Source: an uncultured Fusobacterium sp.
GTDB lineage: Bacteria; Fusobacteriota; Fusobacteriia; Fusobacteriales; Fusobacteriaceae
NCBI RefSeq assembly: GCF_905200055.1
Contig: NZ_CAJKIS010000005.1
Coordinates: forward strand, 12,192-76,191
Reading direction: 5' to 3'
DNA: 64,000 nucleotides
The position numbers and the translations under genes are program-made. The notes under the pieces were generated by a model. It saw nothing but the letters and a program-made list of their open reading frames with translations. It made no database searches and was not told where the DNA came from. Shown in pieces: positions 15,804-37,908 of the stretch (the first letter of the stretch is position 1; every line of letters begins with the position of its first letter).

Positions 15804-16299
15804 ATTAATTTCCTCCTATCACTAACTTTAATTTTCAAAAAAACAAAAAGATGCATGTATTAAATAGACATAGTTAAACTGTAAGCATGACTTATTTCTA
15901 AAAACTTCAAGTCAAAATAGCTCTCCACAATTATATTGTGACAGTTGTTACATTTTTATGTAACCCCCAAAGAAAAAGATCCACAAGCCCTCTTTTTCTT
16001 TTCGGCAACTATGTCCTTCGTATGAAGCATTGAGCGCTTTTTCTCTTAGCATCTCCATACTACCCCCATAAATGCACCTCTATTTTTATAATCAATAGTA
16101 ATATTTAGTTGTCTCTTGCGCTATGCCATTCTTTTTTATAAAGAAAAACATTTATATAATATATATAAACTTTTTCTAAAAAAGTAACACATTTCTTTCA
16201 ATATAAGTATACTTTGACTTCTTTTAAAAGTCAATAGAAATTTTTATTTTTTTTTATTTTTCTATTTTTTATAAAATCAAACTCTTATTTTAAAGGAAT

Positions 16300-20634: not shown

Positions 20635-21300
20635 CTATTTCCCCTCCAAAATCAAATTTTCTCTAGTCCATGTAATTTTTTCAGAGATGGAAAAAAACTT
20701 AGCTCTCTCTTCTATATGAAAATTAATAGCTTTTACTGTTGAAGGAATATAAATAATATCTCCCTCTTTTCCTTCATAAGTTCTTTTATCTATTTCAAAG
20801 GAAACTTTTCCATCAGTGATATAAAGAATCTCTTCTGAGGCTATCTTCTTTAAAAAATTAGAGTTTTCTATCTCTAAAATAGTTGCTCTTTTCTCTTTAT
20901 CTTGTAAAACTTCTTGATATGAAATATTTACATTTTCATCTTTTATATGGTTAAAAGTCATATTTTTCCCTTTTATAAGAGTAAAACCTGACAAATCTTT
21001 TTCTTGATCAAAATTTTTCTTAGTCAATAAGCTCATTATTAAATCACGATATGTCTCTTCTTTAGCTAATAGTTTAAAAAAGTCTATAACCTTCTCCATA
21101 TCTATATCTTTAAATTCTCTTTTAGTGTCAGCAAATTTTTCTTTTAAAACTATTTCCATGTTATTATTTGCTATAATATCTTTAGCTGAAGGTGTTAAAA
21201 TAGTTTTAGAAGTTATATAAACTTTTTTTTCGCCTTTTTCCAAGATCTCTTCAATTTGGCTGGCACATATTAACTCTTTCATCTTTTCACACCCTTTCAC
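20635..21300 (-). CDS. EutQ-like cupin-domain protein
   Basis: 221 aa. C-terminal cupin-like GDIIYIPSTVKAINFHIEE. The position between the shell gene and EutN matches the EutQ context in GRM/eut loci. Confidence 0.5.
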   Translation of the reverse strand: MKGCEKMKELICASQIEEILEKGEKKVYITSKTILTPSAKDIIANNNMEIVLKEKFADTKREFKDIDMEKVIDFFKLLAKEETYRDLIMSLLTKKNFDQEKDLSGFTLIKGKNMTFNHIKDENVNISYQEVLQDKEKRATILEIENSNFLKKIASEEILYITDGKVSFEIDKRTYEGKEGDIIYIPSTVKAINFHIEERAKFFSISEKITWTRENLILEGK

Positions 21301-21302
21301 TA

Positions 21303-21572
21303 TTAATCAAGAATACAATCTGCATCTATTATTCCAACTACCACAGCATCTGCTGGAATCCTTTCATCATTAAACATCTCTCTTGCTGATGATCCTATCG
21401 AGATAATAACTCTATCTCCTATTCCAGCACCTATAATATCTGCAGCTATTATTCTTTTTCCTGTTCTTGATTCATCTCCAGTTAGTTCTTCAACTAATAA
21501 GAATTTTAAACCATTTAATTTTTCAGCTTTTCTTGTAGCCCAAACATTTGAAATTACCTTTGCAAGTATCAT
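21303..21572 (-). CDS. eutN: BMC vertex protein, BMC-P (EutN/PduN/CcmL family)
   Basis: 89 aa. MILAKVISNVWATRKAEKLNGLKFLLVEE is the typical EutN N-terminus. Confidence 0.9.
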   Translation of the reverse strand: MILAKVISNVWATRKAEKLNGLKFLLVEELTGDESRTGKRIIAADIIGAGIGDRVIISIGSSAREMFNDERIPADAVVVGIIDADCILD

Positions 21573-21582
21573 TTTTCCTCCC

Positions 21583-22428
21583 TTAATCTAAAATATTAGA
21601 AGTACAACTTAATGCTATTCCCAATGGTGTTACAAACATAGGGTTTTTAGGCTTATATGTATGGACTTTTGTATATTTTTCTATAATTTCTTCTATCCCT
21701 GTTAAACAGGCTGTTCCCCCAACTAAAGAGATACTATCAACATCATAACCATCTATATGATCCGCTATAATTGATGCGACTTTCTCTATAACAGGTTTTA
21801 ATACTGGTAATAACTCCTTATGATTCTTAGGATCTCTCTTATATTTATCTGCTTCTTCAAAATTCTTTCTATACATTCCAGAAATTACTAATGAAAAATG
21901 TGTTCCTCCAGTAGCTTCATCTGCAACTGCTATCACTTCTCCATTTTTTATTATAGAAGTTCCTGTAGTTCCTCCACCTATATCAACTACTGCACCATTT
22001 TGTAATTTTAAAACTTCATTAGCAGCTGTTGGCTCATCTAAAATATTTGTAAGTTCAAATCCTGCAGCTTGAACAACATTCTTTACAGCTCCTCCATCTA
22101 AACTATCTGTTCCTGGTGGAAGGGCTACTGCTGCATAAATTAATTCTGTTTGAAGTTTTTTCTCTAACTCCTCTTTCATCTCTCTAACTAATTTTATTGC
22201 ACCGATGTAATCAACTACCATTCCATCTTTGACAACATCTGCATATTTATATGCTCCTGCTACAGGTTTATAATTTTCATCTAGAACAGCTAAAACAACA
22301 CAAGCAGTTCCTAAATCAACTCCTGTATAATATACTGATGATTTTCTTAATATTGGTTTCTTTATAACTTTTTCAAACTCCTCTACTAATTCATCACAGT
22401 ATCTATAATCTATTTGTTTTTCTGACAC
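21583..22428 (-). CDS. eutJ: EutJ-like actin/Hsp70-fold ATPase
   Basis: 281 aa. Motifs GVDLGTACVVLAVLD and DIGGGTTGTSI. Confidence 0.85.
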   Translation of the reverse strand: MSEKQIDYRYCDELVEEFEKVIKKPILRKSSVYYTGVDLGTACVVLAVLDENYKPVAGAYKYADVVKDGMVVDYIGAIKLVREMKEELEKKLQTELIYAAVALPPGTDSLDGGAVKNVVQAAGFELTNILDEPTAANEVLKLQNGAVVDIGGGTTGTSIIKNGEVIAVADEATGGTHFSLVISGMYRKNFEEADKYKRDPKNHKELLPVLKPVIEKVASIIADHIDGYDVDSISLVGGTACLTGIEEIIEKYTKVHTYKPKNPMFVTPLGIALSCTSNILD

Positions 22429-23075
22429 TGTTCTCCTCCTAATAATTCAACTACTATATTAAAGATCTTGCTCTTCACATATTTTAAATTTTGAAGAAAG
22501 ATTTTCATATCATCATCAATTTCACTCTCTAAAATCTCTTCTTCTAAAAAGCTCATTTCATATAAAATAGAGTGTAACTTAAATATTCCCACTGCATTTT
22601 TATTGTGAATATAGATATCATGTATCTCTACATCTTCCAACATTATATTTTCTATTTTTTCTTCCTTTAAACTATTTTTCTTATTTAAACTTCTAAAGCT
22701 TCTAGCAACTTCTAAAAGTTTTTGAGCTAAAGGCATATTTTTTTCTAAATTCTCAGATACTAAAGAAAAAAGTTGTGATTCAAAAGATTTGATTTTATAG
22801 ACATATTTGCTTTTTTTCAAGTTAATTTTTTCTTCTACTTTTATAATATTGATATTTTTATTAAATTTAACTTGTTCCTTCTTTGGTTCTTTAACTTTCT
22901 CTATCTCTTTTTTTATCTCTTCTTTTTCCTCTTTATTTTCTACTTTTATTCTTTTATCTACTAAAAATTGTCGCCCTCCTGGAGTTAATCTTTGCTCCTT
23001 TTCTAATTTAAAAATTTCAAAGGGCGTTTTTTTATATATTTCTCTTAAATATTGTTCGGTAATAAATTTAAGCAT
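22410..23075 (-). CDS. Hypothetical K/E-rich protein conserved in the BMC operon
   Basis: 221 aa with no recognisable catalytic motif. Overlaps eutJ by 19 nt and sits directly downstream of the activase. Confidence 0.4.
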   Translation of the reverse strand: MLKFITEQYLREIYKKTPFEIFKLEKEQRLTPGGRQFLVDKRIKVENKEEKEEIKKEIEKVKEPKKEQVKFNKNINIIKVEEKINLKKSKYVYKIKSFESQLFSLVSENLEKNMPLAQKLLEVARSFRSLNKKNSLKEEKIENIMLEDVEIHDIYIHNKNAVGIFKLHSILYEMSFLEEEILESEIDDDMKIFLQNLKYVKSKIFNIVVELLGGEQCQKNK

Positions 23076-23113
23076 TATTTTTCACCTACCATGCTCTTTT
23101 ACCTAAAAAATTT

Positions 23114-24064
23114 TTAATGTCTTATAACTTTTACAGACATACCACTATTTTTTATGTACCCTTCTATTCTTTCTAAATCTTCAGATGACAAGCTTGGGTC
23201 CTCTTTTATAGCATATTCCATTCCTAACTGGTTATATTTATTAACTCCCATCTTATGATAAGGTAATAAATCTACACCTTTTAAGTTTTTATAATTTTTA
23301 TACGGTAACAAAAGCTCAACTAATTTTTCTATATCTTCTTTGCTATCGTTTACTCCTTTTAATAAAGGAAGTCTTATATGAACATTATATTTATTCTCTA
23401 ATAAATACTTTAGATTTTTTATAATCTGTTCATTTCTTACTCCAGTCCAATAAAAATGCTTTTCAGAATCTATCTGTTTTAAGTCAAAAAGAAACAGATC
23501 TACAAATTCAGCAACTTTTTCTATAACACTGCTTGAGGTATATCCACAAGTTTCAATAGCTGTATTGATTCCTTCATTCTTACATGCCATTAATAAACTT
23601 AGTGCTGCTTCTGGTTGCATTAAAACTTCTCCACCTCCAAGAGTAACTCCCCCTCCTGAAGTCTCGTAAAAAGGTCTATCCTCTTCTACTATTTTTAAGA
23701 TTTCTGAAATGCTTTTTTGTTCCCCAACTATACTAATAGCTGAATTATAACAAGCCTCTTCACATTTTCTACAACCTATACAATCTGTAGTCCTGTCTAT
23801 AAGATGAGTGCCATCTGCACTCATCTTATGTACTCCTACAGGACAAACATTTACACAAGCACCACAGTCTTGACATAGATTCTTTTTAAAAAGCACTCTA
23901 CTTTTTTTCATTAATCCTTCAGGATTTGCACACCATTTACATCTCAATGGACACCCTTGGAAAAAAACTAATGTTCTTACTCCCGGTCCATCATACATGT
24001 TATATTTTTGTATATTAAATATAGTGGCTTTCCTTTCTATAAGACTATTCTGCTCTTTATTCAT
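23114..24064 (-). CDS. cutD: Glycyl-radical enzyme activating enzyme (radical SAM, CutD/PflA family) with extra ferredoxin-like clusters
   Basis: 316 aa. CPLRCKWCANPE radical-SAM motif plus CQDCGACVNVCP...CIGCRKCEEAC auxiliary cluster motifs. Confidence 0.85.
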   Translation of the reverse strand: MNKEQNSLIERKATIFNIQKYNMYDGPGVRTLVFFQGCPLRCKWCANPEGLMKKSRVLFKKNLCQDCGACVNVCPVGVHKMSADGTHLIDRTTDCIGCRKCEEACYNSAISIVGEQKSISEILKIVEEDRPFYETSGGGVTLGGGEVLMQPEAALSLLMACKNEGINTAIETCGYTSSSVIEKVAEFVDLFLFDLKQIDSEKHFYWTGVRNEQIIKNLKYLLENKYNVHIRLPLLKGVNDSKEDIEKLVELLLPYKNYKNLKGVDLLPYHKMGVNKYNQLGMEYAIKEDPSLSSEDLERIEGYIKNSGMSVKVIRH

Positions 24065-24082
24065 ATCATTTTCTCCATATTT

Positions 24083-26620
24083 TTAAAAATGTGTTAATAC
24101 AGTTCTACTAATAATCTCATCTTGTACATCTTTACATAGTTCAACAAAGTATGCACTATATCCTGCAACACGTACTATTAGATCTCTATGAGCTTCTGGA
24201 TTAATTTGAGCATCTTTTAACACTTTATTATCTAAGTAGTTAAATTGCATCTCTCCAAGTTGTAACATACATGCTGTACGTAACAATGTGATTATTCCAT
24301 TTTCTCCCTCTGGAGTTTCTAGTAGTCCAGATATTAGTTTGAAGTTATGAACCATTCCAATATTCATATTATCACAAGACATTTTTGATACTGATTTAAT
24401 TATAGCTGTAGGTCCTTTTGTATCTGAACCTTGGCTTGGACTGATTCCATCTGATAATGGTGTCCATGCTTTACGTCCATTTGCTGTAGCTCCTGTTAAT
24501 TGTCCAAATGGAGTATTGTTAGAAATTGATAGTGTTCCATGACTTAACACAGAGTATAGTGTCTTATATTTTCTGTGTTCCATCTCTGTAAAGTTAATTA
24601 GATCAGTTGCTATATAGTCAGCATAGTCATCATCGTTTCCATATTTTGGAGCTTCTATACAATCTTTTCTAACTTTTTCATATCCTACAAAGTCAGCTTT
24701 AAGTGCATCTCTTATCTCTTTTAAAGTATATTTTTTATCATCAAATACTAATTTTTTAATTGCTGCCATTGAGTCAACATAAGTTGCTAGTCCACTCCAT
24801 ACAACTCCTGGTCCAAAGTTATACATAGCTCCACCAGCTTCTACTCCTCTACCTTTTTCCATACATCCTTCATACATTAATGACATTAAAGGTTTTGGTG
24901 CTACTTCTCTGTGAACTCTTTGAGATATTACAGTTGCTATACTTGTCCATTTTGTTATATATTTAATTTGTTCTTTTACTGCTGCATCAAATTCTTCATA
25001 AGTTTTAAATTGATCTAAATCTCCTAGATCTGGACAAACTTGTTTTCCATACCATAGAGGTACTCCATTATTTAACACAAGCTCTATACAAATAGGCCAT
25101 TGTGTATATCCTGTTGATGTCCATTGATATAATCTTCCAGCTTTTTGAGGTTCAACACATCCCATTAAGCAATAATCTCTTGCATCTTCTATAGATACAC
25201 CTTTTGCTAGCATCATTTTGATATGTACATCATCAAAGTGACAAGCTGGGAATCCTAATCCTGCTTTAATTACTTGAACAATTTTCTTTAAGTAAGCGTT
25301 TGGTGATCCTTTGTGAATACGACATGCTAATGATGGTTGGTATACTTTTACATGTCTTACAGCATCCATTAATAAGTATGTTAAATCATTTGTAGCATCT
25401 ACTCCTGATCTAGTAACTCCTCCTACACACATATTTACAAATGGTTGATATCCTGCGAAGAATTTAGATCCTCCTTCACTTGTGATCCACATAACTTCAG
25501 ACATTTTTATAAGCATACATCCTGCTAATTCAAATGCTTCAAATTTTGACATTCTTCCACTTTCAATATCAGCTTTAAAGAATGGATACATATATTGGTC
25601 AACACGTCCAATTGACATTCCTGTTTGGTTTTCTTCTACTACTAAAAGTGATTCTATTGTCCAAACTGCTTGAATTGCTTCCCAGAAAGTTGTAGGTTTA
25701 TGTGCTGGAACTCTTGCGTTAACTTCAGAAATTTTTAGTAGTTCAGCTTTTCTTTTTGGATTTGTTTCTTTTGCAGCTAATTCAGCAGCGTAATCTGATA
25801 GACGCTTAGCATATATCATTACCCCTTCAGCTGTATCTATTATTGATTTATAGAAATAGATCTTATCAATATCTTCTGGATTAGCATATGATAAAGTTTC
25901 TAATTTTTCTTCTGCTTCTCTTTTAATATCAAGCATTCCTTTTTTCATTAATATTACGTCATATCCTGGATTTGAGTCTCCTCCTCCATTAACTGCATGA
26001 TATGAACAATCTGAAACAAAAGATTCTCCTGATAATTCCCATACTCCAGCTTCTCTATATTGATCTTCACAATACTCATCTACTGATTTTCCTCTCCAGA
26101 ATGGGAAGATTTGCTCTCTTAAAACTTTTTTATCTTCTTCAGATATATAGAACGGATCTTGAGGTCTTTTTCCAATTGTATCTAATTCAGTTTCCATCCA
26201 TCTCCAAGCAATATCTGGAGAAAATGCTCCTGCTCTAGGTGCTCCATTAGGACATCCTACGATTAACTCATTATCTTGAATAACTAGAGGAGCTGTTTCA
26301 CAACAATGTTTAAAACTTTTTCCTCTTAAAATAGCTTTTGGCATTCCTGGATTTTCTTGAGCTATTTTAGTGATAACTTTTGCTCTGTGTATTGTTATTG
26401 ATGGAACTTGTTTAAGATAATTTTCTCTTAATCTTTTTAATCTTTCAGTTATTCCTTCTGGAACTTCTGTTTCACAATGGTCTGAACAACAATGGTGTCC
26501 AGCTTCTTTTCTTATTTCATTAGAAACTCCTTGAAACATCTTTAATAAAGCTTCACGTTCTTCATTAGACATATTTTCTGTAGCTTCCATAAATTTATTT
26601 AAAAATTCACGAATTTCCAT
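24083..26620 (-). CDS. cutC: Glycyl radical enzyme, choline trimethylamine-lyase (CutC)-like
   Basis: 845 aa. Glycyl radical motif RVAGY (Gly820). Cys loop GCVEP (C488/E490). T501, Y505, F394, Y207 and D215 are all at CutC-numbering minus 1. Carries the ~50-aa N-terminal extension typical of CutC. Confidence 0.7.
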
Positions 26621-26633
26621 TTCTTCCTCTCCT

Positions 26634-28058
26634 TTACTTTAGTATTGTTTTTATAATCTCTTTAAGTTTTTCTTCTAAATTTTTATTTTTTAAAATCTCT
26701 TCTACTTTTCTTACTCCGTATCCAACTTTTCTAATATAGATTAGATTTCTAGGAGAAACATTACAAGAAGTTATTCCCTTTCCTATTACTCCACTTCCCA
26801 AAGTCATAGCTGGAAAAAGATTAGTTGTTATTCCTAAGCTACCAAAACTTCCTCCAGTATTTACTAAAACTCTTCCAACTGGTTTTTTCAATATAAATTG
26901 TTCTATTATATTTTCATCCTGAGAGTGTATTATTAATGTATGTCCTTGTTTATCACTTAATAAAAGTTCTATACATTTTTCACAAGCATTTTTCCAATCC
27001 TCTTCTACATAAAGATCAAGTACTGGACAAAGCTTTTCTTTAGAATATTCACTATCTAATGTTAAATATTTTTCATTAGTTATTAATAACTTCACATTTT
27101 TTTCTACTTTTATTCCAGCTTTCTCTGCTAAAAATTGTGAACTTTTTCCTATATAGTTTTTATTAAATTTTCCAAATTTATCAAAAATAATCTCTTTTAA
27201 TCTCTTAGATTCCTCTTCATTTAGGAAATAAGCATTATTTTTTATAAACTCTTTTTTTACCTCTTCCAAGATAACCTTTTCTACAACTATTATCTCTTCA
27301 CTTCCAGGAATAATACCATTATCAAAAGTTTTACTATCTACTATATTTTTTACTGCTTCTTTGATATCTGCTGTTCTTTCTATAAATACTGGACTATCTC
27401 CATTTCCACCATAGATATATGATTTCCCACTTGTTTTTATCTCATCTAAAAGTTCATCTATCCCAGTATTTAATATAAGATTTATATCTTTATGATTTAA
27501 CAGCTCTTTGCTTCCATTTAGTGAACATCTACTTATATAAGAGATAATACCTTGAGGTGCTCCTGATTTTTCTATAATATCTATAATTGTATCCATAACT
27601 TTTTTAGTAGTTTTTTTAGCTTTCTTAGACATTCCAAAAACTATTCCATTTCCTGATTTAATAGCTATTATACTCTTATAAATTAGAGTGGAAACTATAT
27701 TGGCTTCTGAACAAAAAGCTGCAATTACTCCTACAGGAACACCAACATCTAAAGTTTTATCTTCTTTATTATTTTCAATTACTCCTACACATCTCATATT
27801 TTTTAAAGCTTTTTCTAAATTATTTAAAAACAATTCTAGTTTTAATTTTTTATCTTCAACATTTCCTATCTCTGTTTCCTCATAATCTAGTTTTGCAAAC
27901 TCTTCAATATGATCTTTTATTTCTTTAAAAATATTATTTACAATGAAATCTAGTTGTTCTTGAGAGAAATTTTTTACTATTTTCTGTGCTTCTCTTGCAT
28001 TTTCAACTAATATTCTTGCCTCTTGCATAGAAAGTAAGTCGTTATCTATAATATCCAT
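26634..28058 (-). CDS. Aldehyde-dehydrogenase-fold paralogue lacking the catalytic cysteine (putative non-catalytic/scaffold BMC protein)
   Basis: 474 aa. Aligns to the 500-aa AldDH, but the catalytic-Cys motif TICASEQ is IIPGSEE here and the GGPGMV NAD-binding motif is GIDELL. The amphipathic C-terminus [14 protein letters not shown] is retained. Confidence 0.7.
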
Positions 28059-28080
28059 TTCTCTTCACCTTCATGTAAAA

Positions 28081-28404
28081 CTATAAATTTTCAATAGCAT
28101 ATCTATCTATTATCTTTTGTAAATCATTGTGTGGTCTAGCAATTACTACTGAACTATATAAATTTCCACCTTCCATATTATTTACAGCATATACTCCTGC
28201 ATCAACTGCTGCTTTACAAGCTCCTACATCTCCAGTTACAATTACAGATATATACCCTGATGCAACATTTTCATATCCAACTAGTTCAACATCTGCTGCT
28301 TTACACATAGCATCTGCTGCTTCTAGAGCAAATACCAGTCCAAATGTTTCTATTAATCCTATTGCTTCACGTCTTATCATATCCCTACTCCTTCTATTCT
28401 CCAT
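28081..28404 (-). CDS. BMC shell protein, BMC-H
   Basis: 107 aa. BMC domain IGLIETFGLVFALEAADAMCKAADV. Confidence 0.85.
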   Translation of the reverse strand: MENRRSRDMIRREAIGLIETFGLVFALEAADAMCKAADVELVGYENVASGYISVIVTGDVGACKAAVDAGVYAVNNMEGGNLYSSVVIARPHNDLQKIIDRYAIENL

Positions 28405-28693
28405 CTATATCATGAACTGAAACTATTTTTCCTACTTCACTAATAGGTCTTGGCATAACATTTTTTGCTGTAAGTGTACCAATTGCTTTTGCTGCTGCTG
28501 CTCCAGCTTCAACTGCTGCTGTTACTGCTGCCACATCACCTTTTATCATTATTGTTACCAATGTAGAACCTATATTTTCATAAGATACAAGTTCTACGTT
28601 TGCTGCTTTTAGCATCTTATCTGCTGCATCTAAAGCTGGAACTAATCCTATTGTTTCTACAAGCCCTAATGCTTCATTTCCATAATATTTCAT
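28394..28693 (-). CDS. BMC shell protein, BMC-H
   Basis: 99 aa. BMC domain LGLVETIGLVPALDAADKMLKAANV. Confidence 0.85.
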   Translation of the reverse strand: MKYYGNEALGLVETIGLVPALDAADKMLKAANVELVSYENIGSTLVTIMIKGDVAAVTAAVEAGAAAAKAIGTLTAKNVMPRPISEVGKIVSVHDIDGE

Positions 28694-28709
28694 TTTATCC
28701 TCCTTCTTT

Positions 28710-28976
28710 TTAGTCCTTTATAAAGCTATTTATTGTTTTTTTACTTTCTTCACTTGCTTGATAATAGATAATTAATTCCCCATCATCACTTAAATCTGCT
28801 GCTACCTCTTCTATTAATCCGTTTGCTTCTGCTGTTAAAAGAGCATCTTTTATATCTTTTTTATTAAATGCTTTAAAAGATGAATATTCATTTTTTAATG
28901 CTTCCATCACATCATTTGCTGATGCTTTAGAAACTTTTGTAAAATATTTTAATATAGCATAATTTAATGGTTTCAT
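28710..28976 (-). CDS. Small (88 aa) protein of unknown function, translationally coupled to the upstream permease
   Basis: Start trimmed to MKPLNYAILKYF, preceded by AGGAGG. Its ATG overlaps the TAA of the permease (TAATG). The longer ORF-track version overlaps the permease and is probably wrong. Confidence 0.5.
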   Translation of the reverse strand: MKPLNYAILKYFTKVSKASANDVMEALKNEYSSFKAFNKKDIKDALLTAEANGLIEEVAADLSDDGELIIYYQASEESKKTINSFIKD

Positions 28977-30070
28977 TAATTTTCCTCCTTTTTCTTGAAA
29001 AAATCTAATGGATTTACAGCAATTAATAATATTCCAAAGATCATAACTACTGCTCCTATCCAAGCAACTGTTGGTAAGTTCCAACCATCAATTCCTGAAA
29101 TAACTCCTAAAAATAACCAACAGAAGAAAGGACTAAAGAATGAATAAGTTCCATTACATGCTGTTCCAAGTCCTGCTCCACACATACTGTTTCCTTTATA
29201 CCAAGTCATAAATGAAACAAATGTTGACAATCCACTTAATGCAAACCAGATCATTGCTGGCATACTTGTTAATGCTTGGATAGTTAAAGAAGTTGAAATA
29301 TCAATTCCTCCTGCCATTACTCCAATTGCTGGTACAACTATGAAAAGGTTTACTATTCCACAAGTCAATTGTCTTACACAAATTCCAATTTGAGTGTCAA
29401 CCATTGCTGAAGCATATCCAGCTACACAACCTTCAAATCCCCAACCAAATGCTGCTATAATTGCAATAACAAGACCTAATAGAAGTTCTGTTGAGAAGTT
29501 CTCTCCCATTCCTGTACTACCAATCATGAAACTAGCAAAAACACAAATTCCGATTCCTAAAGCCATTCTTTTATTTATCTCTTGTTTATAAAAGATTTTT
29601 CCTAAAATAGCTGCTATTGCAGGACATAATGCTGAAATTGGAACTATTATTGATCCTGCCATTTGTAGTGCCACAACAAATGCTGTTCCTGCTATTGGTC
29701 CTCCTATTAATGCTGCAAGCATAATTTGTTTACCAGGTTTTGTATTTAGTGTTCTTAGAAAATCTTGAAATTTTCCTTGATATATTGAGTTTAATATCGC
29801 CCAAAATGAACTTGAAATATCATTTATTGCATTTCCTAAAGCTGCTAGAAGATAAACTATTACAAATGCTGAAAGTCCTGCTGTGTTTTCTCCATACCAG
29901 TCTGACCATACTCCTTTTGTCATTCCCAATGTTAAGCATGCTGTATAAATACCATATGTTATTCCAGAAAATAACGCTATTTGTATTCCCTTCTTTAAAA
30001 ATTTATTCTTAACTTCAGCCTTCAATTTAAGAATTTTTATTTCTTTTTCCGTTAATTCACTGTTGATCAT
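28976..30070 (-). CDS. Polytopic (about 10 TM) permease of unrecognised family, first gene of the BMC operon (candidate substrate transporter)
   Basis: 364 aa, strongly hydrophobic with Gly-rich helices (GGPIAGTAFVVAL, CGAGLGTACNG). Does not resemble BCCT or EutH sequences I know. Confidence 0.5.
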   Translation of the reverse strand: MINSELTEKEIKILKLKAEVKNKFLKKGIQIALFSGITYGIYTACLTLGMTKGVWSDWYGENTAGLSAFVIVYLLAALGNAINDISSSFWAILNSIYQGKFQDFLRTLNTKPGKQIMLAALIGGPIAGTAFVVALQMAGSIIVPISALCPAIAAILGKIFYKQEINKRMALGIGICVFASFMIGSTGMGENFSTELLLGLVIAIIAAFGWGFEGCVAGYASAMVDTQIGICVRQLTCGIVNLFIVVPAIGVMAGGIDISTSLTIQALTSMPAMIWFALSGLSTFVSFMTWYKGNSMCGAGLGTACNGTYSFFSPFFCWLFLGVISGIDGWNLPTVAWIGAVVMIFGILLIAVNPLDFFKKKEEN

Positions 30071-30332
30071 CTAACTCCTCCTAAAAAATATTAATATTAT
30101 TTTTAAATTATTCTAATTTAGACTAAAAGGTTGGCTTAAATCTTTTTCAAATTTATTATAGACCTTCCATTTAAGGTTAAAGTCAAATATTTTTTCATTT
30201 TTTATGATAGTTCTTTTATAGAACGTTAACTTCTAAAATTATTCTTTTATTTCTTTTTCAAAATTAATTAAAGTGTCATTTTGGTAAATTAATGTCTGAT
30301 TTTTATTTTTGTATATATTTTTAGTCAAAATT

Positions 30333-30404
30333 AAAACCTTCCATATAGGTGGAAGGTTTTGATTTTATATAATAAAAAAGACCTTAATACTTTTACTAAG
30401 GTCT
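30333..30404 (-). terminator. Two tandem palindromic terminators downstream of the merR-type gene
   Basis: AAAACCTTCCATATAGGTGGAAGGTTTT at 30333-30360 and AGACCTTAATACTTTTACTAAGGTCT at 30379-30404, both flanked by A/T runs. Confidence 0.55.
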
Positions 30405-30416
30405 TTTTATACTAAA

Positions 30417-31241
30417 TTATTGTATTTTTAATTTCACCATTATCTCTGTAACATACTTTTGTTCATCTTTTGTGCTCCAATAATCAATCACATATCTTTC
30501 AAAACATATATCATCATATTTATAGTTATGGTATTTCAACCAATCTTTTATTTTTTTATATGTTTCATCAATATTTTCATGTGATCCTATATGATAAGCT
30601 GAAGCCACCATATAACCACCATATTTAGTTAATTTATCACTTGAACATTTTTTTAAATTTTTCTGTAAAATTCTTACTTTTTTACATTTCTTTTCTATCT
30701 TTTCATCAAAAGAAGGAAACTCTATAATGACTGGGCCTGTTATTGCATTTTCTATCTTTTCAATGTAATTTGTAAATTCTATATTTATAACAGATTTTAC
30801 ATAATCATAGTCATAATCTTGTTCTAAAAAAAGCATCTCAGCTTCTTCTAAAAACTTTATTTTAACATCTTGAATATCATATTCTATAACCATTTTTGCT
30901 TCTCTAACTAATGAATACCAATCTTCTATAGATTTTTTCTTTAAATTCAATTCCTCTTCTATTGATTGCAACTCTTTAATTTTTTCTCCAAAATCTTCTT
31001 CTATTGTTGAAAATCCAGAACTATAAATCAATGATTTTATTTGATCAAGAGTAAATCCACTTTGTTTATAATATTTTATTACTGGTATTGTATATAAATT
31101 ATCCTTATCATAATAACGATAACCATTTTCATTTATTTCACAAGGAGATAACAAACCAATTTGATCATAAAATCTCAATGTTTTTTTTCCTATTTTACAT
31201 ATCTTTTCCACTTTTCCTATGCAATATTTTTTCTCACTCAT
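30417..31241 (-). CDS. MerR-family transcriptional regulator with C-terminal GyrI-like effector domain
   Basis: 274 aa. N-terminal MerR HTH (YCIGKVEKICKIGKKTLRFYDQIGLLSP). Confidence 0.75.
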   Translation of the reverse strand: MSEKKYCIGKVEKICKIGKKTLRFYDQIGLLSPCEINENGYRYYDKDNLYTIPVIKYYKQSGFTLDQIKSLIYSSGFSTIEEDFGEKIKELQSIEEELNLKKKSIEDWYSLVREAKMVIEYDIQDVKIKFLEEAEMLFLEQDYDYDYVKSVINIEFTNYIEKIENAITGPVIIEFPSFDEKIEKKCKKVRILQKNLKKCSSDKLTKYGGYMVASAYHIGSHENIDETYKKIKDWLKYHNYKYDDICFERYVIDYWSTKDEQKYVTEIMVKLKIQ

Positions 31242-31272: not shown

Positions 31273-32418
31273 CTAGCCAATTACTTTGTCTAAAATTTTA
31301 TAAATTTCTTCTTGAGATACTTTCTTAGGATTAGATTTTGTACATACATCTTTTTCTAATGCTCTATACACTTCTTCTTTAAATATATTTATATCTTCTA
31401 TATTTTTCCCAAGTTCCTTTAAGTTTTTAGGAATTCCTAATTTTTTATTTAATTCAGATATATATCTCACTAAATTATTGGCTCCTATTATAGGATTACA
31501 TGAATTTAACCCTATAATTTTTGCTAATTTTTGATATTTTTTAGTCACTAAATTACAATTCTCTCCAACATAAGATGTTACTTTACAATCTGAATTATAC
31601 TCAATTACATAAGGCAAAATAATAGCATTTATCTTTCCATGTGGAATATGAAGTTTTCCTCCTATTGCATGAGCTAAACTATGTGTTATTCCTAACCCAG
31701 CATTATTAAATGCTAATCCTGCTAAACATGAGGCATTATGCATTCTCTCACGATAATATAAATTTTCACCTTCTAAGTAAGCTTTTTCTAGATTTTCTAT
31801 AGCTAAACTAAAAGCTTTTTCTGCAAAGGCATCTGTAAAATCATTTGCTCCATTTGAGACATAAGCTTCTATTGCATGAGTTATTACATCCATTCCTGTA
31901 TCTGCTGTTATACTTTTTGGTACACTTTTAATTAAATCTGCATCTAAAATAGCAACTGTTGGTAATAATTCCTTTGAAGTTAAAGCATATTTAAGATGTT
32001 CTGCTTCATTTGTAATAACAGAATATTCTGTTACTTCTGATCCTGTTCCACTAGTAGTAGGAATTGCATAAAATTCAATTTTTTTAGAATGATCTTTATT
32101 TAATTTATTATAATACTCTCTTATAGCCTTTGCTCCATCAATTGAAGATCCTCCACCTAAAGCTATAATTAAATCGATATTTTCATTCTTTAAAACTTGA
32201 ACTCCCATTGCTACTATTTTTACTGTAGGATCTGGTATTACCTCATCAAATACTGCTACATTACAGTTGTGAATATAATTTTTAACTTTTTCAACCATCC
32301 CAGAACTATTAATAAACTTATCGCATACTATTAAAATATTTTTATCAACAAGTTCCCCTAATTTTTTTAAAGCCTCTTCACCAAAACAAATTGTAGTGCT
32401 AATAGTAAATTCTTGCAT
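31273..32418 (-). CDS. Iron-containing alcohol dehydrogenase (CutO/PduQ/EutG-like)
   Basis: 381 aa. Fe-ADH motifs GGGSSIDGAK and H-x3-H in the metal site region. Confidence 0.85.
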   Translation of the reverse strand: MQEFTISTTICFGEEALKKLGELVDKNILIVCDKFINSSGMVEKVKNYIHNCNVAVFDEVIPDPTVKIVAMGVQVLKNENIDLIIALGGGSSIDGAKAIREYYNKLNKDHSKKIEFYAIPTTSGTGSEVTEYSVITNEAEHLKYALTSKELLPTVAILDADLIKSVPKSITADTGMDVITHAIEAYVSNGANDFTDAFAEKAFSLAIENLEKAYLEGENLYYRERMHNASCLAGLAFNNAGLGITHSLAHAIGGKLHIPHGKINAIILPYVIEYNSDCKVTSYVGENCNLVTKKYQKLAKIIGLNSCNPIIGANNLVRYISELNKKLGIPKNLKELGKNIEDINIFKEEVYRALEKDVCTKSNPKKVSQEEIYKILDKVIG

Positions 32419-32593
32419 CTTTCTATCTCCTTAAAATAAAATTTTAAAAAGATTTAAAGTTTGCCTATTCCTTTCAGTCATTTTCATAATAACATATAAA
32501 CTTTATAAAATCAACATGTTTATCTGTCATCTATATTGATTTAATTATTACTATTTTTGTCATAAATAATTCAATAACATAGCATTTCATATA

Positions 32594-32625
32594 AAAAGGT
32601 GATTAAAAAAATTTAATCACCTTTT
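32594..32625 (-). terminator. Palindromic terminator after the RSH-SIR2 operon
   Basis: AGGTGATTAAAAAAATTTAATCACCT with T-runs on both sides. Separates the three-gene operon from the ADH gene. Confidence 0.55.
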
Positions 32626-32633
32626 CTTGTTTT

Positions 32634-33416
32634 TTATTTAAACTTATTATCTAGTTCTCTCGGTGGACACTCTTTATCATTATGTAAACTAAATTGAGAT
32701 TTCATCTTTTTAATAAATGTTCCCATTTCATCAGCACTTCCAACAATTCTATTAAATATACCTAAATACTCTGTAATTATTGGGTTATCAACATCATAAG
32801 GATATCTCATCAAGTGATCTATCTCACTCCACGCCTCTTCAAACACTGTTCTAACTTGAATTTCTACAAGAATCTCATCTTTTCTAGTAACTGGTATTCC
32901 TATCAAATAGTGAACAGAACGATATCCATGATCTCTTACTACAATTTCACAATTTAACTCTGATATACTCTCTTGAAGTTGAGCAACATTGTAGTCCCCT
33001 CTTCTTATATTTATTTGTGGAGTTTCCCTTATCTCCCATAAATTCATAATATCTTCATGTATACCACGCCAATCATCTTTAAAAAGATGTAATACTCTTA
33101 TTCCAATAAGATCTGTTACAATTTTTTTATATGTTTCTACAGAAATCCCTCTATCAACATATTTTTTTCCTTTGCGAATAATCTTTTCAATAAGATGTTC
33201 TGGTTTTTTAACTCTTCTTCTTACAGAGTGCACATTATTTCCATCAATTAATTTTGAAACTATATGTTCTGCCTCTTTTTCTAAATATGGAACAAGGGCT
33301 GTATAATCTTCATATATTTTCAATAGCTCTTCCCAAACTAATCCTGTTGATTCAAAGTATTTTTCATCAATAGAAAACCTTTTAAAGAACTGTTCTTTAT
33401 CTAAAATATCAGACAT
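32634..33416 (-). CDS. RelA/SpoT-homologue (RSH) nucleotidyltransferase-domain protein, small alarmone synthetase / toxSAS-like
   Basis: 260 aa. Motifs HSVRRRVKKPEHLIEKIIRK, LIGIRVLHLF, DHGYRSVHYLI, EIQVRTVFEEAWSEIDH. Confidence 0.75.
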   Translation of the reverse strand: MSDILDKEQFFKRFSIDEKYFESTGLVWEELLKIYEDYTALVPYLEKEAEHIVSKLIDGNNVHSVRRRVKKPEHLIEKIIRKGKKYVDRGISVETYKKIVTDLIGIRVLHLFKDDWRGIHEDIMNLWEIRETPQINIRRGDYNVAQLQESISELNCEIVVRDHGYRSVHYLIGIPVTRKDEILVEIQVRTVFEEAWSEIDHLMRYPYDVDNPIITEYLGIFNRIVGSADEMGTFIKKMKSQFSLHNDKECPPRELDNKFK

Positions 33417-33427
33417 TTTTCACCTCT

Positions 33428-34660
33428 TTAATTAAATTTTTCTACCTTTTCTAAAGATATTTCAACTGCTTTTCTATAACCACATATTTCATTATCTTTT
33501 GTAAACTCTCTCTCACTAACTTCAGATTTAACCTTTATAATCTCTTTAATATCAAAATTAATTCCTCTAAATTCTAATTTATGAACCCTTTCAAAAGTCA
33601 GATTATCTCCAGCCTGAATATCAAAGCTATTTTTTATTCTAAAGTTAATCCAGCTATCAATTTTTTTACCTTCTAAAATAGCTTCAGTTAAAAAAACTTC
33701 ATAGAAACTATTAGTTATCTCTGCAAAATTCTTTTCTCTATTTAAAGAAAATGAGTTCACTATATTTTTATATGAATTTGCTAACTCTTGTAATAGATTA
33801 AATTTATATACCTCTATTCTATTTTCGAAAGTTATATCTCCAACTAATTTTTTAAATTTAAACTCTATTTTTGCTCCACTAAATATCTCTTTTAAAATAT
33901 TTACAACCTCTATAAAACGAGAGTTTTTTATCTTATTAAAGATCTCATATTTATAGAAATCTCCATTTTTTACAAGAGTCTCTCCATTTAGAAGATCTAT
34001 GCTTAAAGCCACTTTAAATTCTCTTGTTTTTATCTCTAAAAGCTTAAATTTATCATAAACTAAAATTTTTAATGAAGTATTATTCAAAAGAGTCTCTCCA
34101 ATTTTTACTGTTGAAGTTCCTACGCTTATAACCTCATTAAAAGATAGTTCATTTGAAAAATTTGAATAAGAAATAGGAAAATTATTTAGGTGTAGAGAAG
34201 TATATTGTATTTCTAATCCGCTTTCAACTAACCTTACATCATCATTATCTGTTAAGATTGTAATATCTTTAGGATCTCTTTTCTCCTCTAAATTTTCAGC
34301 TACAACATTTTCAACTATAATTTCATCTTTTTTTTCCTCTTCAGGCTCTTCTGAAACTATTTCGCTCTCTGTTGTTTCTTTTAAATTTACCTCTTCCTTT
34401 TCACTCTCATTGTTTGTCGAAGTTTCTTGAACTTCTATTTTTTCTTCTTTCTCTATCTTTAAATTTCCCTCAGCAGGTAGAACTTTTTCTTCAGTTATAT
34501 CAGCTAAAGTATTCTCTTGAGTTTCTACTTCCTTTTTCTCTTCCTCTTGGGATTTTATCTCTAACTCTTTTTCAGCAAATAGCTTTTTTTGTTGAAGTTC
34601 ATCAAAAATTTCACTACTTTTTTCATCTTTTTTTTCGGTAATAATGTCCCCAGATTCCAT
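33428..34660 (-). CDS. Hypothetical protein with ~130-aa E/K-rich disordered N-terminus and novel C-terminal region
   Basis: 410 aa with no recognisable domain. Its start is 1 nt from the SIR2-like stop and its end is 11 nt from the RSH start. Confidence 0.5.
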   Translation of the reverse strand: MESGDIITEKKDEKSSEIFDELQQKKLFAEKELEIKSQEEEKKEVETQENTLADITEEKVLPAEGNLKIEKEEKIEVQETSTNNESEKEEVNLKETTESEIVSEEPEEEKKDEIIVENVVAENLEEKRDPKDITILTDNDDVRLVESGLEIQYTSLHLNNFPISYSNFSNELSFNEVISVGTSTVKIGETLLNNTSLKILVYDKFKLLEIKTREFKVALSIDLLNGETLVKNGDFYKYEIFNKIKNSRFIEVVNILKEIFSGAKIEFKFKKLVGDITFENRIEVYKFNLLQELANSYKNIVNSFSLNREKNFAEITNSFYEVFLTEAILEGKKIDSWINFRIKNSFDIQAGDNLTFERVHKLEFRGINFDIKEIIKVKSEVSEREFTKDNEICGYRKAVEISLEKVEKFN

Positions 34661-34662
34661 TA

Positions 34663-35472
34663 TTACCTCACTAACTTTTTTTCTATCTTATCACTGTCCT
34701 CTTTTTGTAATAGACTTTTAACTCCATCTAAGAATTCAATCTCATCAAAAACAGTTAGTTTCAAATTGTATCTATTGATTACTTCACTAACTTTATTATC
34801 TATAACAGAGGTAGAAGAAACTATATACATAGGTTGTTCTATTTTACCAGCTTTTTTCATTATAAAATCTAACATATCTATAAAATCTGGATCTTTTAAC
34901 TCTACTCCTAAAAATAAAGTAGGTCTACTTTTTAATTCTGTACATATTTGTTCAAAAAATCCATTATAAAAATCAAGTACCTTTAATTTTCTTACATCTT
35001 GACTTGTAATAAAAAGATCTTCTGGATTACAAATATTCCCCATGATCTTATAAAAGTTGATTTTTTCATCATCTGAAAAATCATTTTTTGTTGGAGTAAT
35101 TGTATTTATGTAATTTGGATATAATTTTTCTAAAACTATATCATAGTTCATTGTCATTATTGTTTTAAAATAATCAAGCTCAAAAATATTGTCATATATA
35201 TCAACATTCTTATAATGTTTCATATCAAAGATTTCTCTTATTTGTTTTAAAAGAGAATTTTTTGAACTTATAACTGCATCTAGATAAGCTTGAGCCACAT
35301 CTGAAAAAGAGTCTCTATTTTTAATATAACCTTTTGCTGATTGTTTGATATCAAAAATTATCATATCTGCAAGTTCTGCTCTTTTTGGAAATCCTGTTAT
35401 TTCACTAACAAAATCTCCTATAAATAGATTTAATTTTTGTGCTTCTCCAAACTTATCAAAAAAGTTCTTCAT
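34663..35472 (-). CDS. SIR2-like domain protein (SIR2_2/ThsA-type fold, degenerate catalytic motifs)
   Basis: 269 aa. LFIGDFVSEITGFP, MTMNYDIVLEKL, YKIMGNICNPEDLFITSQD and TLFLGVELKDPDFIDML parallel the ThsA SIR2 motifs GAGxS, TTNYD, KxHG and FxGxSxxDP. The GAG and His positions are substituted. Confidence 0.65.
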   Translation of the reverse strand: MKNFFDKFGEAQKLNLFIGDFVSEITGFPKRAELADMIIFDIKQSAKGYIKNRDSFSDVAQAYLDAVISSKNSLLKQIREIFDMKHYKNVDIYDNIFELDYFKTIMTMNYDIVLEKLYPNYINTITPTKNDFSDDEKINFYKIMGNICNPEDLFITSQDVRKLKVLDFYNGFFEQICTELKSRPTLFLGVELKDPDFIDMLDFIMKKAGKIEQPMYIVSSTSVIDNKVSEVINRYNLKLTVFDEIEFLDGVKSLLQKEDSDKIEKKLVR

Positions 35473-35668
35473 GTTGTCACCTACCTTGTGTTTTGTTTTC
35501 TATCACTATTAGTATAACTTAATTTCTTAAATTTAACAACAAAAAACTTACAAAAAGTCAAGAAAAATTTTTTTATTTACATTTAATAAAAAGGAAATAG
35601 TTTATGATTTTATTAGTAATATATTAAAAAAAGTGCTATTATTAAAATATAAACTATGAGGTGATAAA

Positions 35669-37117
35669 ATGAATCTGATTATAACTTTTTTTAAAGACTA
35701 TATTGTAATTATAAACATATTCTTTTTAATTACGATTGTACTCTTAGAAAGAAAAAAACCTGTATACACTTTGTTTTGGATAACTATACTTATTCTTGCT
35801 CCATATATTGGTTTTATATTCTATCTATTTTTTGGATTGAGCTTTAGAAAAAAAAGAGTTGTTGATAAATTCTATAAATGGAAATTTCTTCATAGCAAAA
35901 AAGTTATCAGTTCCTCTGAAAGAAAAGATCTAAATAGATGGAAGCAACTTATCTCATACCTTGAAATAGCTTCTAATAATAAATTAACAACTTTAAATGC
36001 TTTTAAATTATTTACTGATGGAAATGTTTTTTTTAATCATATGATAGAAGATTTAAACGAAGCTAAACATTCAATTAATATGGAATATTATATTTTTAGA
36101 TATGATGAGTTAGGAAAAAGAATAATAGATATTCTTATTGAAAAAGCTAAAAATGGAGTTGAAGTAAATGTAATCATTGATGAAGCTGGTGGGGCTGACA
36201 GAAAAATGATAAAACTTATGAGAGATAATAATATTAATGTAGAGATATTCTTTCCCTCTCCCTTTGCTTCTTTCAAAATAGCTAATCTAAGAGCAAATTA
36301 TCGTGATCATAGAAAACTTTGCCTTATTGATAGCAAACTAGGTTATATTGGTGGTTTTAATATAGGTTTAGAGTATTTAAGCAAAGGAAAACTTGGACAC
36401 TGGCGTGATACAGGAGTAAGAGTTTTTGGAGAAGCGGTTCTGGAATTAGAAAAAGAATTTTTCTTCTCATGGGGAATTGCTAAAAAGAAACCTGTTGTGT
36501 ATCAAGCTAAAGAATATGCTTTTGAACATGAAGCTTTCCAAGAGATAATAAGAACAAGAGGTAAATACTCTGGATATTCTCAAGTTGTTAGTAGTGGACC
36601 AAATTATCAATTTAAAACTATGAGAGATACATTTTTAAAGATAATTTTAGAAGCAAAAAAATATATCTATATTCAAACACCATACTTTGTTCCAGATGAT
36701 ACTATCTTGGAAGCTTTAAAAATAGCTACTCTTTCTGGAGTAAAGATTAAAATAATGATACCTGATAAACCAGATCACTTCTTTATTTATTGGGTTAATC
36801 AATATTTTGTAGGAGAACTTCTTGATTTAGGAGTTACTGTTTATAGATATCATAAAGGATTCTTACATAGTAAAATGGTACTTGCAGATGATGAGGTTGT
36901 AAGTATTGGAACTGCTAATTTTGATAATAGAAGTTTTTACCAAAATTTTGAGATAAATATTAATATCTATGAAAAGGATATTGCTGAGAAATTTAGAGAG
37001 ATTTTCTATGATGATATGAAAACAAGTAGCAAATTATTAAGAAGTGAATATAGCAAAAGAGGTTTCTACATCAAATCTAAAGAATCAATTTGTAGGCTTC
37101 TTGCTCCTATACTATAA
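35669..37117 (+). CDS. cls: Cardiolipin synthase (PLD superfamily, two HKD motifs, N-terminal TM helices)
   Basis: 482 aa. HRKLCLID and HSKMVLADD HKD motifs. N-terminal two-TM segment. Confidence 0.85.
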   Translation: MNLIITFFKDYIVIINIFFLITIVLLERKKPVYTLFWITILILAPYIGFIFYLFFGLSFRKKRVVDKFYKWKFLHSKKVISSSERKDLNRWKQLISYLEIASNNKLTTLNAFKLFTDGNVFFNHMIEDLNEAKHSINMEYYIFRYDELGKRIIDILIEKAKNGVEVNVIIDEAGGADRKMIKLMRDNNINVEIFFPSPFASFKIANLRANYRDHRKLCLIDSKLGYIGGFNIGLEYLSKGKLGHWRDTGVRVFGEAVLELEKEFFFSWGIAKKKPVVYQAKEYAFEHEAFQEIIRTRGKYSGYSQVVSSGPNYQFKTMRDTFLKIILEAKKYIYIQTPYFVPDDTILEALKIATLSGVKIKIMIPDKPDHFFIYWVNQYFVGELLDLGVTVYRYHKGFLHSKMVLADDEVVSIGTANFDNRSFYQNFEININIYEKDIAEKFREIFYDDMKTSSKLLRSEYSKRGFYIKSKESICRLLAPIL

Positions 37118-37140: not shown

Positions 37141-37908
37141 GTGACAAAAATGGTAGAATTTCAAAAACTTTCTTCTTTCTTTTTTAAATTTTTAGAAAGT
37201 GATGCTAAATTTATAGGGGATTTTTATTATGATCTTCATATTCATACAACTGCGTCAGATAGTTTTATTAAGCCTGATTTTTTAAAAAATTTTGTTAAAA
37301 ATAAAAGATATCTATTATCTGTAACAGATCATAATGAAATAAGAGGATCTGTTGAACTTTATGAAAAGGGAATTAATGTAGTTCCGGGTATAGAGATTGG
37401 TTGTGAAGATGGATTTGAAATGCTTGTTTATTTTAATGAGATGCAAGATTTAGAAGATTTTTATAGAAGAGAGGTTGAAGGATATAAGAATCTAAAAAGA
37501 ATGGCAAAAACACATAGAACTATTTATGAATATCTTGATGCTTTACAAGGGATAAACTGTCATAAATCTATACCTCATATTTGTGGAGTTGTTCAAAAAA
37601 ACTTCATTCACAATAAACCATACATATATGATATTATAAAAAAAGTTGACTCTATTGAAACTCACAATCATGCTCTACCTATGGTTAGAAATCTACAAGC
37701 TGCTGAAATTAGAGAACAGTTTAACTTAACTGCTACTTTTGGAAGTGATGCTCACATAATAAGAGAGGCTATAGCCTTCTATAAATATGCTAACATGGCA
37801 TCTGTTGGAGTCGGTGATACTGTTATGAACTATCTTTTTAAAATAGGTAGTATCAGTGGAATAGGACAAAAACATCTAATACATATGTTAAAGAATACTT
37901 TACTATAA
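37141..37908 (+). CDS. PHP-domain phosphoesterase
   Basis: 255 aa. DLHIHTTASD PHP motif and later His/Asp metal ligands. Confidence 0.65.
   Translation: MTKMVEFQKLSSFFFKFLESDAKFIGDFYYDLHIHTTASDSFIKPDFLKNFVKNKRYLLSVTDHNEIRGSVELYEKGINVVPGIEIGCEDGFEMLVYFNEMQDLEDFYRREVEGYKNLKRMAKTHRTIYEYLDALQGINCHKSIPHICGVVQKNFIHNKPYIYDIIKKVDSIETHNHALPMVRNLQAAEIREQFNLTATFGSDAHIIREAIAFYKYANMASVGVGDTVMNYLFKIGSISGIGQKHLIHMLKNTLL

Follow-up and report, generated by a model that had tools for sequence, protein, structure and literature searches.

A conserved three-gene operon of Fusobacteriaceae encoding a degenerate SIR2-like protein, a protein of unmatched fold and an FpRel-type alarmone synthetase

The operon and its three proteins

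A three-gene operon has been analysed in a 64,000-nt stretch of DNA (below, the window; contig NZ_CAJKIS010000005.1, positions 12,192 to 76,191) from an uncultured Fusobacterium sp. The first-pass annotation of the window, made from the sequence alone, had presented these minus-strand genes as a candidate defence or toxin operon composed of a degenerate SIR2-like protein (gene 1), a protein without a recognisable domain (gene 2) and a RelA/SpoT-type nucleotidyltransferase (gene 3). The tight packing of the genes and their open reading frames (ORFs) are confirmed, and the trio forms a conserved unit with the appearance of co-transcription (Table 1). The reading that we favour, with evenly balanced confidence, is that of a vertically inherited, Fusobacteriaceae-specific alarmone-signalling operon with genes 1 and 2 as the regulator or sensor of the synthetase, rather than a mobile defence or toxin island.

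Table 1. Features of the operon and its immediate surroundings (window coordinates)
Feature	Position	Strand	Description
Gene 1	34663-35472	-	269 aa, catalytically degenerate SIR2_2 (immune-type SIR2) protein
Gene 2, whole	33428-34660	-	410 aa ORF
Gene 2, N-terminal segment (aa 1-135)	34256..34660	-	acidic, low-complexity, probably disordered
Gene 2, C-terminal domain (aa 136-410 and stop codon)	33428..34255	-	conserved ~270-aa beta-rich domain, unmatched fold
Gene 3	32634-33416	-	260 aa, FpRel-subfamily small alarmone synthetase (SAS), probable (p)ppApp synthetase
Hairpin terminator, bidirectional	32594..32625	.	14-bp stem, 4-nt loop, T-runs on both sides
AT-rich intergenic region	35473..35668	.	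196 nt between the operon and divergent cls; contains the ribosome-binding site of gene 1
Candidate sigma-70 promoter of the operon	35539-35511	-	TTGTTA-17-TATACT
cls (cardiolipin synthase)	35669..37117	+	TIGR04265, 433 bits (cut-off 290)
PHP-domain phosphoesterase	37141..37908	+	PHP and PHP_C just under Pfam cut-offs
tRNA-Arg(CCT)	37961-38037

Gene 3 scores 73.6 bits with the Pfam profile PF04607 (RelA_SpoT; cut-off 27), in line with its initial assignment, and the synthetase motif set, already described as complete, is intact, with RRRVKK, DLIGIRV, GYRSVH, EIQVRT and EIDH invariant across 20 orthologues. The protein is 74% identical to FN0926 of F. nucleatum over the full length (420 bits), orthologues from Fusobacterium, Cetobacterium, Ilyobacter and Propionigenium are 61–87% identical, and the family is conserved throughout, including the N-terminal region and the C-terminal RELDxKFK. 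Of the two terminal extensions of about 50 aa proposed initially, the C-terminal one (~45 aa) is indeed specific to the subfamily, whereas the N-terminal part can be aligned to the corresponding region of RelP. The likening of gene 3 to toxic small alarmone synthetases (toxSAS) is not supported. In a reference panel, the scores are 159–200 bits with clostridial FpRel (C. collagenovorans), 54–64 bits with S. aureus RelP, 26–34 bits with ActRel3 and at most 16 bits, that is, not significant, with FaRel, FaRel2, PhRel, PhRel2 and CapRel; among PDB structures, no toxSAS is matched even at E<=10. It had also been considered that gene 3 might prove to be a housekeeping RelQ/RelP orthologue in a conserved chromosomal context; the context is conserved, as described below, but the orthology is not observed, the score with the NCBIfam equivalog NF053588 (GTPPhKinYjbM) being 38.2 bits against a cut-off of 320. 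A PADLOC match to PDC-S33 (21.8 bits, 37 residues) spans the catalytic motif only.

Both FN0926 and the C. collagenovorans sequence are labelled FpRel in the supplement of PMC10434055. In the same study recombinant FN0926, cloned alone in pET28a, was used preparatively in overnight reactions, and in vitro it made pppApp from ATP and ppApp from ATP and ADP (PMC10434055). The set of RelA/SpoT homologues (RSH) in Fusobacteria comprises Rel and fpRel (Atkinson 2011). Judged by its sequence, gene 3 is an SAS of the FpRel type, and it is a probable (p)ppApp synthetase because of its orthology to FN0926.

Gene 1 was correctly placed in SIR2_2 (PF13289, 66.2 bits, cut-off 24.5); it also matches PADLOC ThsA1 (1.3e-9), and its Ilyobacter orthologue reaches 79.4 bits with PF13289. 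The solved relatives found by a profile of the 21-member gene 1 family are KomC, the SIR2 NADase of Kongming, and ThsA only, and the fold is of the SIR2 Rossmann type, nearest to the immune (ThsA/KomC-like) clade. The substitution of the GAG and catalytic His positions, pointed out initially, is upheld by the alignment with KomC and ThsA and by 103 distinct family sequences. In place of the GAGxS NAD-binding loop, LFVGAGVS of KomC is aligned to NLFIGDFVS of gene 1, and Asp or Glu directly follows the conserved Gly in 101 of the 103 sequences, so that GAG has become G-D/E-x. The catalytic His146 of KomC (KFHGD; H152 in ThsA) is aligned to Met144 (YKIMGN), and the equivalent position is occupied by L, M, F, Y or S, by Asn in Ilyobacter, and by His in none of the 103 sequences. 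The TxNxD motif, whose Asn and Asp contact the nicotinamide ribose, is mostly kept (MTMNYD in the window protein; across the family, 84% of the sequences have N109 and 92% have D111), and new invariant positions are G145 and Q158-D159, the latter within S-Q-D-[IV]-[RK]-[KR]-L-K. Searches of Pfam and PADLOC yield no TIR, SLOG or Macro domain, as would mark Thoeris, in any of the three proteins. Gene 1 is best described as a predicted pseudo-enzyme, and its NADase activity is unlikely, because H146 of KomC is aligned with Met144 and because KomA and KomB are not present.

Gene 2 has no match in Pfam, NCBIfam, PADLOC or PHROGs, so the initial failure to recognise a domain in it stands. Its E/K-rich segment, previously taken for a tail, is in fact N-terminal and strongly acidic (aa 1-135: E 29%, K 14%, net charge -26, pI 4.3). 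Unfused homologues have between 0 and ~200 residues of this segment and fusions between 1 and ~640, as a linker; the segment varies in length, and is almost always net-acidic once longer than ~25 aa, with net charges down to -83; it appears not to be needed for the core function, since its length falls to 0 in homologues. The remaining domain (aa 136-410) has just 69 representative clusters among 1.84 billion proteins. Its AlphaFold model is confident (pLDDT 93.6, pTM 0.88), and a fold search retrieves no match among solved structures. Approximately 24 of the 69 representatives are gene 1–gene 2 fusions, with the gene 1 domain at the N-terminus and an acidic linker, and in three loci (L020, L021 and L104, in our numbering) the fused gene is followed by the RSH gene. 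With the two proteins joined into one polypeptide in so many relatives, it is likely that genes 1 and 2 constitute one functional unit. In the fusions P0274, P0277 and P0279 (1107–1201 aa), the acidic linker has grown to 550–640 residues.

Conservation, linkage and surroundings

The distribution of the trio was surveyed from two sides. On the gene 2 side, an alignment of 27 sequences was too divergent to yield a pattern, and a tighter alignment gave one usable motif and 9 loci, a thin sample; the RSH-side survey provided 80 metagenomic loci, and all loci were scored with local hidden Markov models (HMMs). All 9 gene 2-side genome loci belong to Fusobacterium or other Fusobacteriaceae. The fetched loci contain 78 separate trios and the 3 fused ones, while in another 13 the contig stops within gene 1 or short of it. 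Given enough flanking sequence, the RSH gene comes directly after gene 2, the two overlapping or lying a short distance apart, in every locus from Fusobacterium, Cetobacterium and uncultured Fusobacteriaceae. The trio is found in loci of the F. nucleatum group (RSH 93–99.6% identical to FN0926; e.g., L086 on a 1.5-Mb contig), in F. necrophorum, in the complete 2.07-Mb Fusobacterium genome CP060637 and in Cetobacterium, and also in L052 and L055. Co-occurrence in other genomes, named initially as a check on the proposal, is hence borne out across Fusobacterium and Cetobacterium, and the reliable cases of an RSH gene alone come from Ilyobacter and Propionigenium only.

Two loci that could be taken for decay of genes 1 and 2 beside an intact RSH gene (L069, 1-1001, and L075, 1-2881) were rejected, being contigs of ~2.9x coverage and probably chimeric assemblies; their upstream halves join foreign-looking genes (SMC/FtsY/UvrB in one case, a SusC-like fragment in the other) to a truncated gene 2. 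In L067 (118-1816), at the edge of a contig, an IS607-like element (serine recombinase and TnpB) lies directly 5' of an intact F. nucleatum-type RSH gene, with no gene 2 between them, and it is ambiguous whether this is a true replacement of genes 1 and 2 or an assembly artefact.

The three proteins co-diverge without reshuffling: the identities of gene 1, the gene 2 C-terminal domain and RSH to the window type are 55/55/88, 45/46/83, 37/38/75 and 31/35/73%. Identity of RSH (72–88%) is higher than that of its partners, and cls is about 50% identical at an equal distance. The RSH protein is more like a core enzyme than a conflict toxin, because it is under far stronger constraint than either the partners or cls.

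Linkage to cls is persistent, in three arrangements. In the varium, CP060637-like, necrophorum and nucleatum groups, cls directly adjoins the 5' side of gene 1 and is divergent from it; in a Cetobacterium-like clade (L052-L060/L101), it is co-directional and 3' of the RSH gene; and in Ilyobacter, it stands next to genes 1 and 2, away from the RSH gene. The Cetobacterium loci L010 and L011 keep the trio, with cls not nearby. PHP orthologues stand beside cls in L001-L005, L015, L016, L020, L023 and Ilyobacter, this gene being syntenic in the varium and CP060637-like groups, in L020 and in Ilyobacter, and a small lipoprotein-like ORF is likewise syntenic in several groups. The N-terminal part of the PHP protein weakly matches a 5'-3' exoribonuclease (7ug9) and a 3',5'-nucleoside bisphosphate phosphatase. 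The protein could act as a phosphatase on 3'-phosphorylated adenine nucleotides.

The most informative loci are those in which the trio is split. In Ilyobacter polytropus and Propionigenium maris, the RSH protein is 70–72% identical to that of the window, and genes 1 and 2 are not adjacent to its gene. The I. polytropus homologue of gene 2, identified by tblastn in PLSDB, lies ~257 kb from the RSH gene on the same 962-kb replicon, in the context PHP <- cls <- / -> lon -> "SIR2 family protein" -> hypothetical. Here gene 1 scores 203 bits with the family HMM and has WIGD, TTNFD and YKINGD, gene 2 scores 155 bits, and cls and PHP are 50 and 53% identical to the window proteins. This locus overturned the notion that genes 1 and 2 never occur without an adjacent RSH gene. 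All three genes persist when unlinked, since Ilyobacter keeps genes 1 and 2 and the RSH gene so far apart, and the linkage of genes 1 and 2 with cls and PHP appears to be the oldest one. A toxin standing at such a distance from its neutraliser is therefore unlike a toxin-antitoxin or compact defence module, and the cloning of FN0926 alone in E. coli, with preparative use of the recombinant protein, is a further, indirect hint against toxicity.

Other genes surround the unlinked RSH genes. In both genera (L006, 3676-6874, in Ilyobacter; L012, 4279-6868, in Propionigenium) the genes next to them, divergently oriented, encode one or two uncharacterised conserved proteins of 182–188 aa and a 656-aa UvrD-like helicase. 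A diadenylate cyclase gene is located directly 3' in Propionigenium, and a CDP-alcohol phosphatidyltransferase gene ~1 kb 3' in Ilyobacter.

Nor do the surroundings resemble the typical defence island initially suggested. Compared between lineages, the trio is not distributed as a patchy, mobile defence system: it occupies a syntenic site, with cls as a syntenic neighbour in four Fusobacterium groups and Ilyobacter, its proteins co-diverge, and its GC content equals that of the flanks, being uniform over the region. Within the window, the operon has neither an integrase gene nor a mobile element beside it. The gene 2 domain was not found on IMG/VR viral contigs, and its "plasmid" matches in PLSDB consist only of one mislabelled chromosome and the Ilyobacter replicon.

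The gap from the stop of gene 1 to the ATG of gene 2 is 2 nt long (TAA-ta-ATG), instead of the single nucleotide reported initially, and GAGG precedes this ATG; the 11 nt from the gene 2 stop to the gene 3 ATG, with AGAGGTG in between, were described correctly. The upstream intergenic region exists, but does not belong to the operon alone, as it is common to the divergent cls. It contains 23 promoter-like matches compared to 21.4 expected from shuffles, that is, no enrichment, and for this reason the operon promoter in Table 1 is a candidate only. A search of Rfam yielded no RNA element near the operon or in this region, and the inverted repeats of the region are AT-rich, uninformative noise. 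The terminator proposed between the operon and a bacterial microcompartment (BMC) locus is recovered as a hairpin with a T-run, the sole terminator-like site in a scan of 32300-35800.

The neighbours cls and tRNA-Arg were identified correctly at the outset. Past cls lie the divergent PHP gene, tRNA-Arg(CCT), the small lipoprotein-like ORF and exonuclease III, and 3' of the operon terminator there is a choline-type (cut-type) glycyl-radical-enzyme BMC locus. This locus (20635-31241) encodes an 845-aa PFL-like glycyl-radical enzyme, a radical-SAM activase, two BMC shell proteins and EutN, as well as an aldehyde dehydrogenase, an EamA transporter and a MerR-type regulator with similarity to the activator of choline utilisation (332 bits, under the cut-off of 450). 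Synteny ends right after the terminator (window 32418-32634 compared to L001/L004 10174-11536). The Fe-ADH/cut microcompartment locus follows it in the window and in L027/L028, and in closely related genomes with 97–100% identical RSH it is followed by an F420-ligase-like gene, an Aas-like acyltransferase, a PTS gene and a Mu-type transposase. Farther away, a lysine riboswitch aptamer (RF00168, 85 bits) is found at 15910-16090 on the minus strand.

Possible function of the operon

If the operon indeed serves alarmone signalling, gene 3 would transfer pyrophosphate from ATP to ATP or ADP, giving (p)ppApp, and the non-catalytic gene 1–2 pair, made in step with the synthetase via translational coupling, would bind either the synthetase or its nucleotide. 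The pair would act as a lineage-specific sensor and regulator, timing (p)ppApp production. The cue may be an envelope/membrane-lipid or a nucleotide signal; a membrane-lipid cue is considered possible because the cls linkage persists, and this persistence may reflect a functional tie to membrane lipid remodelling. A physical complex, the direction of regulation and the signal are what we infer from this arrangement.

Several points weigh against the signalling reading. The function of the gene 1–2 pair is one that we infer; in the most compact natural fusion the domains are modelled confidently, but the pTM of the whole is 0.57, and the model carries no information on the interface of gene 1 with the gene 2 C-terminal domain. 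The in-vitro activity is taken from a methods section on the orthologue FN0926 and not from gene 3 itself, and the cls linkage could be inherited synteny without functional meaning. The closest structural relatives of gene 1 are nearly all anti-phage effectors, and (p)ppApp synthesis is best known from the toxins Tas1 and FaRel (PMC11782079). Synthetases of the FpRel type, 38–50% identical, occur on 16 prophage-predicted contigs from IMG/VR (L106-L121), and further relatives are members of phrog_2211 or encoded by Ralstonia phage YO102_1 (ON170174, 49363-50070). Finally, the faster evolution of genes 1 and 2 compared to the RSH gene is also compatible with a sensor engaged in an arms race.

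Some of these facts would fit a fixed toxin-antitoxin or abortive infection system, where FpRel is a toxic, ATP-depleting (p)ppApp synthetase restrained or triggered by a phage-sensing gene 1–2 pair. Tas1 and FaRel, which synthesise (p)ppApp, are toxins (PMC11782079), the gene order, with partners first and genes overlapping or tightly spaced, is the one seen in toxin-antitoxin operons, gene 1 is structurally in the anti-phage SIR2 clade and matches PADLOC ThsA, the partners evolve faster than the enzyme, and FpRel homologues are present on prophage-predicted contigs and in phrog_2211. Still, we hold such a system to be quite unlikely: comparison of gene 3 with the validated toxSAS subfamilies and structures gives nothing significant, and 70–72%-identical orthologues lack adjacent partners in Ilyobacter, where these lie at a distance of ~257 kb, and in Propionigenium; the cloning of FN0926 alone in pET28a and the need for overnight reactions imply low toxicity and low turnover; the sampled Fusobacterium groups have the trio at one syntenic site by housekeeping genes, with co-divergence and no mobile-element association; and conservation is stronger in RSH than in cls. 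Overall, a role of the trio in defence or as a toxin system is a minority reading. A Thoeris-like arrangement, in which the synthetase makes (p)ppApp to serve as a second messenger and the SIR2-like/beta-domain protein is the dedicated receptor or effector of this messenger instead of a regulator, is unlikely as well, if slightly less so. Under it, one of the two domains would bind the nucleotide, the output would be other than NADase activity, e.g., sequestration, filament formation or regulation of a target such as cls or PHP, and the role would be in stress adaptation or immunity.

The same linkage data can be turned in another direction, to suggest that genes 1 and 2 mainly serve cls and PHP in phospholipid or nucleotide-phosphate metabolism, and that the RSH adjacency is a secondary operon fusion with little coupling. 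The deepest linkage is that of genes 1 and 2 with cls and PHP, in Ilyobacter without the RSH gene, and Fusobacterium and the clade L052-L060 have kept it, in two orientations. We give this explanation little credence, as the RSH gene comes directly after gene 2 in every well-flanked locus of Fusobacterium, Cetobacterium and uncultured Fusobacteriaceae, Cetobacterium L010/L011 retain the trio with cls not nearby, and all three proteins co-diverge. At its most ambitious, the signalling reading would make the operon the first dedicated (p)ppApp pathway outside toxins, in which FpRel is combined with an exapted dead SIR2/new-fold receptor or gatekeeper and (p)ppApp is coupled either to remodelling of membrane cardiolipin or to an abortive response like that of Thoeris; in this extended form we consider it speculative and improbable.

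If the extended reading is true, a dedicated (p)ppApp pathway would operate in Fusobacterium, F. nucleatum included. The gene for the probable (p)ppApp synthetase belongs to the conserved core in F. nucleatum, F. necrophorum and F. varium, that is, in a medically important genus, and, with genetic tools existing in at least one species, the trio would offer a genetically testable way into non-toxic (p)ppApp signalling. It would also be an example of an immune-type SIR2 domain repurposed after the loss of catalysis. For the prediction of defence systems the operon is a caution, as the combination of SIR2_2 and RelA/SpoT resembles a defence operon by its domains and behaves as core genome.

Comparison with known systems

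The combination of SIR2_2 and RelA/SpoT proteins, initially thought to be undescribed, was not found in the literature searched, which likewise contains no SIR2-like partner for an alarmone synthetase, no mention of partner genes for FpRel/FN0926 and no functional data on the FN0926 neighbours (FN0924-FN0929). Jimmy 2020 surveyed SAS neighbourhoods and chose other subfamilies for study. What appears to be new here is an SAS operon with unprecedented accessory proteins.

In Thoeris, ThsA combines SIR2 with SLOG and works with the TIR protein ThsB, whereas the trio has no SLOG/Macro or TIR domain, no catalytic His and no GAG loop, and its second domain (gene 2) is of another, unmatched fold. In Kongming, KomC is a stand-alone 264-aa SIR2 NADase working with KomB, and the trio lacks both the KomA deaminase and the KomB NTP pyrophosphatase.

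The toxSAS (FaRel, FaRel2, PhRel, PhRel2 and CapRel) and Tas1 resemble the trio in having an RSH synthetase in a tight two- or three-gene operon, and two of these toxins, FaRel and Tas1, make (pp)pApp (PMC11782079). However, genes 1 and 2 are unrelated to the known antitoxins SAH, pZFD and Tis1, the sequence similarity of gene 3 is not significant, and the trio has a vertical distribution, none of the examined loci showing signs of mobility. Moreover, a toxSAS would be expected always beside its neutraliser, while the RSH genes of Ilyobacter and Propionigenium have no adjacent partners, the synthetase being unlinked from the partner pair in Ilyobacter.

RelP and RelQ are the best solved-structure relatives of gene 3 (S. 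aureus RelP, 1.6e-16, family profile positions 9-212), and are, similarly, chromosomal, vertically inherited single-domain synthetases of about the same size. Still, gene 3 is not their orthologue, and its product, by orthology, would be (p)ppApp and not (p)ppGpp. To our knowledge, RelP and RelQ have no dedicated co-operonic protein partners.

The closest known relative is FpRel/FN0926 itself, with which gene 3 shares the N-terminal region FF..F.I.E.YF.STGL.W, the motifs RRRVKK, DLIGIRV, GYRSVH and EIQVRT, and the NRIVGSADEMG helix. Firmicute and prophage FpRel have a 100–250-aa coiled-coil/low-complexity C-terminal extension and no genes 1 and 2, the phage and prophage proteins being 341–502 aa long. 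In contrast, members of the Fusobacteriaceae clade lack the extension, end with RELDxKFK and have the upstream gene pair, which may functionally replace the C-terminal extension of the phage and prophage proteins.

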